NCBI GenBank assembly: GCA_000004695.1
Contig: CM000153.2
Location: 1,536,001 to 1,600,000 of the forward strand
Direction: 5' to 3'
Origin: Dictyostelium discoideum
Taxonomy: Eukaryota
DNA: 64,000 nt
Below, piece by piece: positions 4,661-64,000 of this stretch; within the stretch, counting starts at the first letter, position 1; every line of letters begins with the position of its first letter. The position numbers and the translations under genes are program-made. A model generated the notes under the pieces. That model saw only the letters and a program-made list of their open reading frames with translations. It was not told the DNA's origin and did not search any database.

Positions 4661-4990
4661 ATAATAAAAGCCTTTATTTATATTATTATCTATTATTTTT
4701 TTAATGATGCTAATGAAGATTGCTTTGTAAGATCTCTCATTTGAACCTTAAAGTAATTATTGTAGCTTGTGATTTCAAGTGGCCATTTAGTAATAGTTTT
4801 ATTATCACAAACCCAAATTTCTTTTGCAACTTGAGAGATTAATCTAAAATCGTGAGATACTAATATCATGCCTCCGGGGAAAGAATTGATGGCCAAAGCT
4901 AAACTATCAATACATTCCATATCTCTTCAAGAAAATGATCAAAATAGTCAAAAACGATTAAATTTAATGTTTTAAAACGATCAAAAGGTC
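4661..4990 (-). pseudogene. Diverged duplicate of the ABCF terminal exon (exon 3) plus about 80 nt of intron and the 3'UTR; pseudo-exon or alternative terminal exon
   Basis: Minus-strand ORF 4693..4920 ([75 protein letters not shown]) is near-identical at the nucleotide level to 6455..6682. Its flanks match 6431-6760, including the acceptor ttcttgaAG. The changes cluster as nonsynonymous substitutions in the C-terminal half. Confidence 0.65.
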
Positions 4991-6454: not shown

Positions 6455-6686
6455 TTATTTTTTTAATGATGCTAATGCGCCTTGCTTTGTGAGATCTCTC
6501 ATTTGAGCCTTTAAGTGATTCTTATAGCTTGTGATATCACCTGCCCATTTAGTAATAGTTTTATTATCACAAACCCAAATTTCTTTTGCAACTTGAGAGA
6601 TTAATCTAAAATCGTGAGATACTAATATCATGCCTCCGGGGAAAGAATTGATGGCCAAAGCTAAACTATCAATACATTCCATATCT
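6455..6686 (-). CDS. ABCF-family (ABCF2/Arb1/GCN20-like) ABC ATPase, exon 3 (terminal)
   Basis: The acceptor cttgaAG lies on the minus strand and the splice is phase-2. The junction encodes ...PTNHL|[47 protein letters not shown]..., the end of the second NBD (D-loop/H-loop SHD) of ABCF proteins. Confidence 0.8.
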
Positions 6687-9404: not shown

Positions 9405-9547
9405 TGTTTCGTTTTTTTTTTTTTTTTTTTTAAATTTTTTTTTTATTTTTATTTTTTTTTATTTTTATTTTTTTTTTTCGAATTTTTCTTTTAATTCGTT
9501 TTTTCACACCCCTTCCATATTTTTATTTTTAATTTTAATTTTGTTTT

Positions 9548-9579
<32 letters not shown>

Positions 9580-9755
9580 GATCGAGAAGTTGGGGCTGAG
9601 TATTATTGGAGATAAAAAACGTATTTAGTGGCTTTTTTTTATTTTTAATTTATTTTTTATTATTATTTTTTTTTTTTAAAGTTACTAAATTGAAAATCAA
9701 ATTAACCATTCAAATAATCCATGTGAAAATGACAAAAAATAATGATAATAAAATA

Positions 9756-9797
<42 letters not shown>

Positions 9798-10350: not shown

Positions 10351-11105
10351 ATTTGGAGAAAGTAATACATTTTTTAAAGAATCTGAACCATCACACAATA
10401 CTAATTTTATATTAAACATTCCACTTTTAATTGAGAGTTTGATACCACCAATTGAGGCCAAAACATTCAGTTTTGTTTTTGGTTTATAGATCGAAATTTT
10501 TTGATTAATTTCTGAAATATAGGTAACAAAACTTGTATCTTTATCATTGACTATTAAATTATTATCATTTCTATTTACACCATTAAATTCATCATCTAAA
10601 TATATAACACTAAGATCATTTTTAGAAGCTTTGAAAGTTGTGGTAGTAGTGGTAGTGGTAGTACTTGTAGAAGTGAATGAAGATTTTGAATTTTCATTAT
10701 TATTATCGTTTAATAAATTTACTCTGTTTGTTATTAATGATTGAGGTGGAGATAGTAATGATATTGGTATATCTTTTGTGATTCCCTGATTTATTGTATT
10801 GGCACTGGTAGGTGTTGTAGTGGAGGTAGTAGTGGTGGATGATGACGATGACGAAGACAAAGGTGGTCTTTTAATAATTCCACTTGTACTTGGTTTAATT
10901 GGGAGGGTTGGTCTAATTGTTGATGTTGTTGCTGTAGCTGTACTTGGGTTTGACAGATGTATTGTTGGTCTTATTAAATTTGATGGTGTAGTATTTGCAA
11001 TATTGGCAGTAGCAGCTATATTCATTCTATTGATACCCAATGTAGAGACTGTGGATGTTGTAGTTTGTTTATTAATATTATTTACAGGTAAGATATTTGA
11101 TCGGG

Positions 11106-37182: not shown

Positions 37183-38826
37183 TTAATTGTGATAGTTATT
37201 GTAATTATTATTGTTGTTGTTATTATTGTTGTTTAAATTTTCAGGTCGGTTTGGACAAAGTGGTGGACATTTTTGATGTTCATTACGATGTGCTTCACAT
37301 GATTGGGCTGGACGTCCAATTGGTTTTCTGAATTTTGGAAAATTTTGTTGGTTTTCATTATTTGATTTTTGTTGCGGTGATTGTCTATCACTTTCATGTG
37401 GTGAATGTGGAGGTGATAAAGATGATCTATAATTATTATTATAATTATTTCCATTATTATTATTACCATTATTGTTGTTATAATAGCTATTGTTGTTACT
37501 ATTATTATTATTATTATTATTGTTGTTGTTGTTATAATAATTGTTGTTATTATTACTACTATTATTGTTGTTATTATTGTTGTTATTATTATTAGAATAA
37601 GATGAAATTGATGATAAATATTGGTTTGAACCTTGTTGGTTGTAGTTTTGATTTTGATTTTGGTTGTGGTTTTGGTTGTAATTTTGGTTTTGGTTTTGGT
37701 TTTGGTTTTGATTTTGATTTTGATTTTGATTTTGATTTTGGTTTTGGTTTTTTAATTTATTATTTTGTTGAGTGTTCCCATTTTGTGGTTTTTGTTTTTG
37801 TTGTTGTTGAATTTGTTTTTGTAAATTTTGTTGAGCTTGTTGATGTTGAACTTGAGCTTGGGCAGCCAATTGTTGTTGTTGTAATTGAAGATGTTGTTGA
37901 AATTGTTGATTATTTTGTTGTTGTTGTTGTTGAAATTGTTTGTATTGAGTAAGTTGTTGACTTAATTGTTGACTCAATTGTTGTTGTTGATTCATTTGTT
38001 GTTGGTGGTATTGTTGTTGTTGTGGTGGTAAATTTTGAGTCATTTGTTGTGATGCTTGATAGAATTGTTGGAGATTGATTTGTTGTTGTTGAACTTGTTG
38101 TTGTGCTTCGGTACTGGTTTGTAAGAGTAACAATTTCTCATTTTGATCGATTAATTTTGAGATTGGATGAACACAATGTGGTCTTGGGGACCATTTATTC
38201 ATTAATCTCATATACTTCTTTCTGGTGGAAGTTACAGTACGACCCAATGTACTGGCAATGGATCTCCAACGCAATTCACTCTCTTTTGAAGTGACAGATT
38301 GTGGATCTCTTTGGAAAACCATCTCCAATAATCTACAACATTCTTCTTGTGACCAAAGTTTTCTAGTGGCAATTGGAATCTCAACTGGTGATAGGCGTCC
38401 GGTACATGATTCTGGGCATTTCTTCTTCCATTTACTATGTTTATTACAGGCCAATGATCTCATATTATTTGGTGAAGATTCTCCATCGTTCTCTTCAGAT
38501 TCTGATCCTGATCCTCCTGATGGTGATCTAGTTGGTGATGATGGAATTAATTGTTGCAACTCTTGTGAATTACCATTATAATCAAATAATGAATTATTTA
38601 CTGAATTTAAATTATTATTTAATTGATTTAATTGATTTAATTGTTGTTGTTGTTTTGTTGTATTATTTTCATTACGATCATTGTTATTATTGTTGTTGTT
38701 ATTAGAATGATCAAATAATGGTTGTCTTGGTGATAAAAATGGAGAATTATTAGTTGATGAACCATTTGGAGTTGTTTTAGAAGAGATTGATGGTGAGGTA
38801 TTATAGAGTTCGGATGAATAATCAGA

Positions 38827-38871
<45 letters not shown>

Positions 38872-39245
38872 GGAAACATAGTGATCAACATGTAATTTTG
38901 GTTTTTGATATTTTTGATATGGGTGGTATGAATTTGGTGACAATGATGATGTGTGAATTGTTGGTGAATTTTCTGATGATTTTGATGGGCTAGCAATCTT
39001 TGATAATAAAATTACACCATCTTCCATTAAATCTTTATTTGATAATGAAGAAGAAGAAGATGATGATGATGATGATGACGATGATGAGAATGATGGTGAT
39101 GGCAATTGTAATGAAGATGGTGATGTAACTATAGAATTCTTTGATGGATAAGTGAATTTAATTGATGATGATGGTGAATTTGGTCTATCAATTGTCGAAT
39201 CTTGACCAGTTGGTGATGATGTTGCTGATGAATCATCACAATAAC

Positions 39246-39277
<32 letters not shown>

Positions 39278-39363
39278 GAATTATTATTGTTATTGTTATT
39301 ATTATTATTATCGTTGGAATCTTCCAACATGAAAGAAATTTTCATTCTATCTAAGACAATCAT
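37183..39363 (-). CDS. Myb/SANT-domain protein with extensive Q/N/S-rich low-complexity regions
   Basis: A Myb-like repeat is present: RKLWSQEECCRLLEMVFQRDPQSVTSKESELRWRSIASTLGRTVTSTRKKYMRLMNKW (W-x19-W spacing). Cys/His-containing basic C-terminal segments are present (CEAHRNEHQKCPPLCPN). The coding strand contains an NQ hexapeptide repeat (CAAAAT)n. Confidence 0.65.
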
Positions 39364-53107: not shown

Positions 53108-53189
53108 TCGACATCGGCAGGGTTCGAACCTGCGCCTCCTAGGAGATTTGATTTCAAGTCAAACGCGTTAGACCACTTCGCTACGATGT
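53108..53189 (-). tRNA. tRNA-Ser (anticodon UGA), class II with a long variable arm
   Basis: The minus strand folds by hand as GACATCG-TA-GCGAAGTGGTCTAACGC-G-TTTGA-CTTGAAA-TCAAA-TCTCCTAGGAGGC-GCAGGTTCGAACCCTGC-CGATGTC-G. It has a 7-bp acceptor stem, a GTGG...TAA D-loop, the anticodon TGA in a 7-nt loop, a stem-loop variable arm and a GGTTCGAACC T-arm. The oligo(T) terminator ATCTTTTTAA lies immediately downstream. Confidence 0.9.
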
Positions 53190-53375
53190 CTTTGATGAAA
53201 TTTGAAATAAATAGAAAAATTTGATGGAAATTATTTAAACCCAATTCAAAAAAAAAAAAAAAAAAAAGATGGAAATTATTTAAAATTAAAAACAAATTAT
53301 CTTTTTTTTGCTTATAAGCAAAATAAATATTAGAACAAATCTTAAATCAAGATGAGGTTGTTTTAAAAAAAAAAT

Positions 53376-61278: not shown

Positions 61279-61515
61279 ATGAATAGAGGATTTAGTTTTT
61301 CGACAAAAGTGGCAACATCTTTAAATAGATGTAATAATAGAAGTAATAATATATCACAATCTGTATCATATAATTTTATAAATAAACCAACAACTACAAC
61401 ATCATCAACAACTTCAGCATCAACCACTTCTCAACCATCTTTTTCATTACCAACCTCTTGCAATTCAAATTCGCCTCAATCAAATTTAAATAGTTTTAGA
61501 ACAAAGTCACAGTAA
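61279..61515 (+). CDS. Possible small Ser/Thr/Asn-rich ORF or first exon of an unresolved gene
   Basis: The ATG-initiated 78-aa ORF MNRGFSFSTKVATSLNRCNNRSNN...SFRTKSQ ends where a GTAAAT donor overlaps the stop (cagTAAat). No downstream exon could be joined with confidence. Confidence 0.25.
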   Translation: MNRGFSFSTKVATSLNRCNNRSNNISQSVSYNFINKPTTTTSSTTSASTTSQPSFSLPTSCNSNSPQSNLNSFRTKSQ

Positions 61516-61531
61516 ATATCTTATTTTTTTT

Positions 61532-61566
<35 letters not shown>

Positions 61567-62184
61567 AAATTAACTCATTTTTACCACTTTTATCAAAATT
61601 ATTAGAACAATTAGTAAATTTAGTTCAAATTTATTAGGTACAGCTTTATTCGAATTTCAAGCTTTTCTCATTGATGGTATGTGTTTTTTTTTTGAAAAAA
61701 AAAAAAAAAAAAAAATTTAAAAAAAAAAAAAATTTAATAGAATTTTTTTACTGATACTAATAATAGATACCTAATATTAAAAATAATAATAATTATTTTT
61801 ACAGATGGTAGCTAATTTGTTTATTTTTTTAAAAAAAAAAAAAAAAATATATAAATAAATTTTAAAAAGTTTTAAAAAAAAAAAAAAAAAAAAAAAAATT
61901 TGGTTCCTATGCAATTTTGGATTTTTTGTTCAATTTCTAAATCCATATAGTTATAATTGTTATTATTATTTTTTATTAATTTTATATTAAAAATGTTATA
62001 TGATTTTCAATTTTCGGAAATAATAAAAAAAAAAATATAATTAATTTTATTTTTTTTTTTAAAAAATATATTTTTCCTTAAAGGTTAAAATTGTCAAATA
62101 ATTTTAAACCATATAAATTAAATAAAAAAAAAAAAAATTATAATATTCATTTCATTTAAAAAATATTATTTATTCACAAAAAAT

Positions 62185-62197
62185 TATGACAATCTTT
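62185..62197 (+). CDS. hssA/2C/7E-family small Gly/Cys/Ser-rich protein, exon 1 (13 nt)
   Basis: ATGACAATCTTTG (MTIF+g) is followed by a GTAAAT donor. A 13-nt first exon encoding MTI(L/F)G is the characteristic architecture of this Dictyostelium gene family. Confidence 0.6.
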
Positions 62198-62273
62198 GGT
62201 AAATATTTCATTTTTTTAATTTATTTAAATTTAACAAATGTATAAAATTTTTTCACTTAAATTTTTTTTTAAG

Positions 62274-62452
62274 ATTCAATTGCTTTAATTTCAAAATCAT
62301 CAAAAAGTGGTCTCACTTCTGGTAATACTACCTCAAAATTAAATGGTATAACTGTTGGTGGTAATAATGTATCCAGTGTTAATTGTGGTGGATGTGGAGG
62401 TTATACTAACAATGAACCTTCATTGTATGGAGGTAATTGTGGATGTAACTAA
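62274..62452 (+). CDS. hssA/2C/7E-family protein, exon 2
   Basis: The acceptor tttttttAAG at 62271-62273 is followed by DSIALISKSSKSGLTSGNTTSKLNGITVGGNNVSSVNCGGCGGYTNNEPSLYGGNCGCN*. The 76-nt intron is AT-rich. The full protein is 63 aa. Confidence 0.65.
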
Positions 62453-63180
62453 GTTAAAAATTATTATTTTTTTTTTAAAATTCAAATAAATAAATAAAAA
62501 AAAAAAGTTAATCCACCATACCATAATTTATTTTTTTTTTTAAAAAAAAAAAAAATGTTTTTATTATGAAATTATTTTGTTTCAAAAAGGACTCAAAGAG
62601 GTCTGGTAACTACCATTTCTTAATGTTAAAAATAATTAAAAAAACCAAAATGATTCAATTTCCTAGGTCTTAACTTTTGTTGTTTTTTTAGGAAAATTTC
62701 ATTTTGTATTAGGACACACCAAAAATAGAATTTTTTTTATTTTTAAATTTTTTTGTTTTTTTATTTTTATTTTTTGTTTTTTGTTTTTTTAAAAATTTAT
62801 CTGAAAAAAAAAAAAATTAAAAAAAAAAAATATATATTTGGTGTAATGCTGTGGGTTATATAATAAAAAAAAAAAAAAAAAAAAAAAAATCTTTTGAAAA
62901 ATAATTTATTGTTGTTTTTTTATTTTTGAATATCTTTGCTAAAAAAAAAAGATAAATTTATTTTTTTTAAGAAAATACCCTGGTATTTACAAATATGTGC
63001 AAAGAATTCTTGATTGGTAGTGTTGAATTTTGTGGAGTGAAAAACGGGGAAAATTTTTTTTTTTTTTTGATTTTTTTTTTTTTTTTTTTGATTTTTTTTT
63101 GTGTATGGTAAATGATTGGCTATGACCAGGTTCAATCTTTGTTCCATTTTTATTTTTTTTGTTTTTTTTAATTGTTTTTT

Positions 63181-63637: not shown

Positions 63638-64000
63638 GATGATTGCTCAACCACTTTCAATTTTAACATTAAACATTGACGATAAATTCAATCAACCAAT
63701 TGTCATCGGTGATTTACAAGAAAGTATTACTTCATTGTCATTGGGATTCGAATTTAACCAAACCATCGCACCTGGTGCCCTCCCAAACAATCTTAGATCA
63801 TTATCATTAGGCCGTAATTTCAATCAAACTATCACTCCAGGTATTTTACCAAATAGTTTAAAAACTTTAACAATTTTAAATCCAGATTTTAACCAAGAAT
63901 TAATTACAGAAGGTTCAATTCCACCATCTTTAGAACGTATTTATTGTGTCTCTGAAAATAAAGAATTTATAAATAATCCAGGACTTTCAAAATTCATTCA
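63638..64000 (+). CDS. FNIP-repeat-containing protein, 3'-truncated at window edge
   Basis: MIAQPLSILTLNIDDKFNQPIVIGDLQESITSLSLGFEFNQTIAPGALPNNLRSLSLGRNFNQTITPGILPNSLKTLTILNPDFNQELITEGSIPPSLERIY... shows tandem FNQxI..G.LP.SL..L.fG modules (the Dictyostelium FNIP repeat). The frame is open to the end of the window. Confidence 0.75.

Follow-up and report, generated by a model that had tools for sequence, protein, structure and literature searches.

A 13-nt first exon in a probable hssA/2C/7E family gene of Dictyostelium discoideum: conservation favours two genes over an upstream fusion

Does the short open frame that ends at position 62452 of the window (the whole stretch of D. discoideum DNA analysed here, 64,000 nt long) belong to a gene of its own that starts in a 13-nt exon, or does it close the upstream gene DDB_G0284161 as a final exon, as several newer annotations have it? 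The window, with 21% G+C, is Dictyostelium DNA. We conclude, with a probability of about 0.87, that the frame belongs to sigN172, which lies on chromosome 4 and is one of the hssA/2C/7E (sigN, "HssA/B-related", PF05710) genes, a family of small developmental genes specific to Dictyostelium.

The 13-nt first exon and the GT...AG intron proposed in the preliminary description were verified by splicing. The joined exons form a coding sequence (CDS) of 192 nt, whose 63-aa translation, MTIFDSIALISKSSKSGLTSGNTTSKLNGITVGGNNVSSVNCGGCGGYTNNEPSLYGGNCGCN, is identical to the protein that had been predicted, while reading without splicing runs into stop codons inside the intron. The placement at 62185-62452, with a 62197/62274 junction, was right for the end of the gene and the start of the second exon, but its 5' start and donor were one base low (Table 1). 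As had been stated, the product is rich in Gly (12 residues), Ser (10) and Cys (4), which together with Asn (9) and Thr (6) make up 65% of the chain. The family-style start pattern ATGACNHTNHTNNGTAA occurs once on the two strands of the window, against 0.04 occurrences expected from shuffles, and this single occurrence shares its phase with an open frame of 59 codons lying 75 nt further downstream. The two AATAAA hexamers beyond the stop codon (62485..62498) are predicted polyadenylation signals.

The gene is indeed absent from the program-made list of open reading frames (ORFs) of the window. Its absence had been ascribed to a length below the 60-aa filter, and length does contribute; however, the first ATG, GTG or TTG of the exon-2 frame stands only nine codons ahead of the stop, and it is this want of an early start codon, not length alone, that hides the gene. 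Reading the sequence alone can therefore recover a 13-nt first exon that is invisible to ORF-based tracks.

We found no paralogue of sigN172 in the window by tblastn, a start-pattern scan or a Cys-tail scan, so that it is a lone copy there. One match, SLSCGECGG at 37388..37414, was rejected because it lies antisense to a poly-Asn/Gln gene, a 726-aa ORF with extensive poly-Asn/Gln tracts at 37183..39363 on the minus strand. Elsewhere, the minus strand carries a tRNA-Ser gene with anticodon TGA at 53109..53190 (ARAGORN; Rfam, 64.8 bits) and, at 4867..4920 and 6629..6682, about 1.8 kb apart, two segments with an identical 18-residue translation, a sign that a coding segment may have been duplicated locally.

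Table 1. Positions of the features discussed (window coordinates, except for the last two lines, which refer to the D. dimigraforme locus L003)
Feature	Position	Strand	Remarks
DDB_G0284161 exon 1	61279..61511	+	
DDB_G0284161 exon 2	61606..61676	+	donor GTATGT after 61676, used by the AX4 model
DDB_G0284161 tiny terminal exon	61767..61774 (ATACCTAA), or alternatively 61805..61815 (ATGGTAGCTAA)	+	
Conserved block	61739..61821	+	~83 nt, 91% invariant in three genomes, exceeding either neighbouring coding exon
Conserved upstream block	62083..62118	+	32/37 columns invariant in three genomes, 22/37 in five
TATAAAT box	62112..62118	+	ends the upstream block; 74 nt upstream of the ATG; 7/7 invariant in five genomes
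sigN172 exon 1, coding part	62186..62198	+	13 nt, ATGACAATCTTTG; encodes MTIF and the first base of an Asp codon
sigN172 intron	62199..62273	+	75 nt, GTAAAT...TTTAAG, GT-AG, 9% G+C
sigN172 exon 2, coding part	62274..62452	+	179 nt including the stop, 32% G+C; encodes DSIALISK...NCGCN
sigN172 stop codon	62450..62452	+	TAA
Two AATAAA hexamers	62485..62490 and 62493..62498	+	33-46 nt past the stop, read from the sequence
sigN-like gene (D. dimigraforme)	10395..10727	+	has ATGACAATTTTTAGGTAA, which exceeds a 13-nt exon plus GT donor by one T
Divergent partner (D. dimigraforme)	9780..9453	-	1-nt frameshift in exon 2; not called

An exact-sequence look-up returned the 63-aa product residue for residue as XP_638760.1/EAL65422.1, "hssA/2C/7E family protein [Dictyostelium discoideum AX4]", which is UniProt Q54Q37 (SI172_DICDI, "Protein sigN172"; DDB0218580) and whose AX4 record sits on a 5.45-Mb contig. 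The gene is thus already known: it is in dictyBase, NCBI and UniProt and has stood in a published family table since 2008. That table (Additional file 1 of Vicente et al. 2008, PMC2257962) gives sigN172, DDB0218580, on chromosome 4, with exons 13 // 178, an intron of 74 and 63 aa. Its counts differ from ours by one base (178 versus 179 and 74 versus 75), and the two are the same gene. The exact database match and the name in this table bear out the family assignment of the preliminary description.

Vicente et al. (PMC2257962) described 96 sigN-like genes encoding proteins of <120 aa, 89 of them with a 13-nt first-exon ORF, with introns of 66-128 nt, and put the identity of sigN172 to SigN1 at 26%. 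Similarly, Kin et al. 2018 (PMC6198379) put the hssA/7E/2C family at nearly 100 genes and described a first exon of 13 bp. The architecture of sigN172 corresponds to this: we found a single GT-AG intron between a 13-nt exon 1 ORF and a 179-nt exon 2, the intron measuring 75 nt in AX4 and 83-126 nt in the orthologues, within the family range. Additionally, the product is small (<120 aa) and Ser/Gly/Cys-rich and is among the shortest of the family, its N terminus MTI(L/F/M)xSI... is coded across the splice site and is invariant in six orthologues, and its relatives are restricted to Dictyostelium.

At the level of the protein sequence, by contrast, the similarity to the family is weak and resides mainly in the first ~11-31 residues and the terminal CGCN. 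Alignment to family members, the check that the preliminary description had proposed, gave a divided answer. PF05710 (Pfam name "Coiled"; the HssA/B-related domain) was the only Pfam family matched by sigN172, but the match (15.5 bits, E 0.033, profile positions 1-61 of 90) stays below the gathering threshold of 21.4 bits. None of the orthologues reached the threshold either (best orthologue E 0.019), five of the six matching PF05710 and nothing else. Matches to PF05710 were seen in none of eight composition-matched shuffles of sigN172. The exon-2 peptide alone (59 aa, MTIF removed) had no PF05710 match, indicating that the family signal depends on the four MTIF residues. Furthermore, an exhaustive phmmer search of 1.84 billion representatives returned the D. 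citrinum orthologue alone, with no other family member at E <= 1e-3; the matches P0009 and P0010 were rejected as chance, being 28-residue low-complexity stretches in long repetitive proteins. Credible relatives were Dictyostelium orthologues only (1.84 billion representatives, 5.8 billion clusters), in line with the claim that the family is Dictyostelium-specific.

For a direct comparison we used a probe sequence modelled on a published Group 2 peptide, solely to retrieve real family members. It recovered one protein, P0011 of D. dimigraforme, whose locus (L003) gave two sigN-like genes. Both carry apparent 1-nt assembly errors, probably homopolymer errors, and the comparisons were made with reconstructed sequences. 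As a positive control, a sigN-like protein of D. dimigraforme scored 83.2 bits on PF05710, against the 15.5 bits of sigN172. In an hhalign comparison, the orthologues (six proteins) and the pair of D. dimigraforme genes aligned over 31 N-terminal columns (P = 5e-4, probability 31%), and Smith-Waterman alignment of sigN172 with sigN-like proteins gave a z of ~2.7, with 24-27 of 2000 shuffles equally good. Two proposed hallmarks stood up here: the N terminus split after 13 nt, since MTIFDSIALIS aligns with MTIMASISSIG of the sigN-like genes, and the C-terminal Cys motif, whose terminal CGCN is identical in the sigN-like genes read from D. dimigraforme DNA. The resemblance of sigN172 to the family is thus one of N terminus (MTI.xSI..I, SSKS), terminal CGCN, composition and, above all, gene structure.

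The annotations of this locus disagree. The AX4 record holds two separate genes, of 103 aa (DDB_G0284161) and 63 aa (sigN172), whereas other D. discoideum strains, D. cf. discoideum, D. citrinum, D. dimigraforme and D. firmibasis have fused "hypothetical protein" models of 157-180 aa, and the 90% cluster of sigN172 includes proteins of 157-161 aa from newer D. discoideum-strain and D. cf. discoideum assemblies. The window encodes exactly both the AX4 103-aa model and a 160-aa fusion. In the latter, exon 2 of sigN172 would be the last exon of DDB_G0284161, reached from the 61676 donor through a 597-nt intron (61677..62273) with matching phases, and the mini-exon would be unused intronic sequence. 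The D. firmibasis model (...PID/ANSIMTIF/DSITL...) differs in that the mini-exon is held in a 24-nt exon, so that the mini-exon donor is in use. For this annotation MAKER was supplied with genome-guided Trinity transcripts and with proteins of D. discoideum (PMC11193728); the main text of PMC12745789 makes no statement on the annotation method of the 2025 assemblies.

To compare the two models across species, four orthologous loci (L001, L002, L004 and L005) were aligned with the window, making five genomes; the protein comparisons used six orthologues. The mini-exon was found at all five loci, with 12 of its 13 positions invariant, the lone change being a synonymous ATC>ATA in D. firmibasis, and all four positions of the GTAA donor were invariant. 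In comparison, the interior of the intron (75, 126, 84, 92 and 83 nt) was 11% invariant, the sequence to each side of the conserved upstream block 0-28%, and the remaining 5' flank 28%. This upstream block, which ends in the TATA box, is the predicted core promoter of sigN172. The fused models would place the mini-exon, the GTAA donor and the TATA block all inside an intron, and yet they are 92-100% invariant in the five genomes against 11-28% around them; we therefore prefer the two-exon model.

The sequence beyond the 61676 donor of the upstream gene points the same way. Both proposed tiny terminal exons of DDB_G0284161 lie inside the conserved block at 61739..61821, which occurs once in the window and can still be recognised in D. 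dimigraforme and D. firmibasis. A conserved AATAAA comes after the block, which agrees with DDB_G0284161 ending there. RNAalifold predicted a hairpin in the block (TAGATACC...GGTAGCTA, -10.4 kcal/mol, with no covariation available as a test), and an Rfam scan of 61500..62300 gave no match.

In exon 2, AX4, D. cf. discoideum and D. citrinum are set apart by indels of 6, 3 and 6 nt, all multiples of three, and the frame stays open in every orthologue. The segments MTIFDSI.LI..SS, VNCG.CG.Y and CGC, including all four cysteines, are invariant in the six orthologous proteins, while the rest of the peptide varies freely. The pN/pS of exon 2, based on small counts, was 0.45 against D. cf. discoideum and ~1 (0.94-1.03) against D. 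citrinum, which indicates that most of the peptide is weakly constrained. Synteny is kept on both flanks of sigN172. Downstream, the window contains at 63639..64000 (+) the start of an FNIP-repeat gene (PF05725 in the orthologous loci) that runs past the window end and shows 93-97% protein identity to the genes of 124 aa that follow sigN172 in L001 and L002.

Among the alternatives, the one that survives best would combine both models: sigN172 would have its own promoter, and minor read-through or conjoined transcripts of DDB_G0284161 would be spliced into the sigN172 exons to encode a chimeric protein. The two genes are on the same strand, ~410 nt apart (counted between 61774, in the terminal exon of the upstream gene, and the ATG at 62186), and the transcript-guided D. 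firmibasis MAKER model joins the upstream gene, the 24-nt exon that contains the mini-exon, and exon 2. However, the AG acceptor used there, 11 nt upstream of the ATG, is missing from the other four genomes, and MAKER can merge neighbours when transcript assemblies or protein matches overlap. We consider such read-through unlikely. Equally, there is only a small chance that sigN172 exon 2, in transcripts started at DDB_G0284161, also supplies an unrelated Ser/Thr-rich protein with an alternative C-terminal module; if it does, the block at 61739..61821 could be the site of the choice between termination and read-through.

A further alternative is that the locus works mainly as RNA, or is a decaying family member, and that the peptide is immaterial. 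The pN/pS of ~1 against D. citrinum would agree with this, as would the outcome of AlphaFold2 on the single sequence of sigN172 (mean pLDDT 46, no confident fold). The frame has nevertheless stayed open in six orthologues despite several indels, the four cysteines, the N-terminal 14 residues and VNCG.CG.Y are invariant, and the sole change in the mini-exon is synonymous. Moreover, the disruption of mounds by antibodies against SigN group 2 proteins points to a function of the protein in this family. Taken with the conservation of the coding parts, this makes an RNA-only or decaying locus quite improbable.

The simple fusion is the weakest. Dictyostelium introns have a mean length of ~150 nt, and 597 nt is long. 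Although fusion-type GenBank models (KAM9943082.1 and others, 157-161 aa) exist in other D. discoideum strains, D. cf. discoideum, D. citrinum and D. dimigraforme, and although the 61676 donor is also that of the AX4 model of DDB_G0284161, we regard a fusion with an unused mini-exon as very unlikely, given the conserved elements it would leave without a role, the 91% invariant block and AATAAA at which the upstream gene appears to end, an intron of 597 nt where 75 nt is typical of the family, a fused protein that has no PF05710 match, a D. firmibasis model that keeps MTIF/D, and locus L003 of the same assembly set, in which a sigN-like gene (P0011) is likewise annotated with an unrelated 5' exon instead of the canonical 13-nt exon and its partner is uncalled, an outcome that 1-nt assembly errors could explain instead.

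The fused models are thus most likely annotation artefacts, and the comparative evidence assembled here, which is drawn from genome alignments, favours the model with a 13-nt exon over the fused newer GenBank models; this point is new. Recent automated annotations of related Dictyostelium genomes replace the mini-exon with an upstream fusion, and cross-species conservation supports the older annotation of two genes. In these newer annotations, other genes of this ~100-member family have probably been misannotated in the same way.

Under the two-gene model, sigN172 would have a TATA promoter of its own, ~70 nt ahead of the ATG, that drives its transcription independently of DDB_G0284161, and its transcript would be spliced once and polyadenylated ~40 nt past the stop. 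By analogy with the family literature, in which expression is developmental, induced around 10 h and found in the prestalk, stalk or cup lineage, the gene may be switched on in multicellular development in the prestalk/stalk/cup lineage. A search of article main texts and of the supplements of three papers for transcript, expression or protein evidence on sigN172 or its DDB_G identifiers gave no result, and the gene did not appear in the supplementary text files of Kin et al. 2018. The gene probably encodes a small peptide that contains Cys residues and is largely unstructured, and its functional parts would be the N terminus MTIFDSI.LI..SS and two Cys pairs (C-G-G-C and C-G-C). These parts would perhaps act by the disulfide- or metal-mediated association, outside the cell or in the secretory compartment, that has been proposed for SigN group 2 proteins, for which antibody experiments suggested a possible secreted or adhesion-related role.

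Compared with the sigN Group 1/2 genes (sigN1-sigN7 and relatives; PMC2257962), sigN172 likewise has a 13-nt first-exon ORF starting ATGAC. (MT..) and one short intron, and its small Ser/Gly/Cys-rich product shares the N terminus MTI.xSI..I and the SSKS stretch. It stands apart from the Group 1/2 subfamily, which is characterized by a length of 87-89 aa and a hydrophobic middle segment: sigN172 has 63 aa, and the Gly/Val-rich hydrophobic middle (predicted transmembrane, residues 54-76) is missing, that region being unmatched in the global alignment. In addition, the Group 1/2 genes are clustered on chromosome 2, whereas sigN172 is a single copy in the window. hssA and the cup-cell clade of hssA/7E/2C genes, which is expressed very highly and very late, share with sigN172 the family and the two-exon layout of 13 bp plus ~200 bp (PMC6198379). 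Even in frame-shifted form, hssA is active as a high-copy suppressor (PMC6198379), and a transcript-level effect has been reported for it in the family literature.
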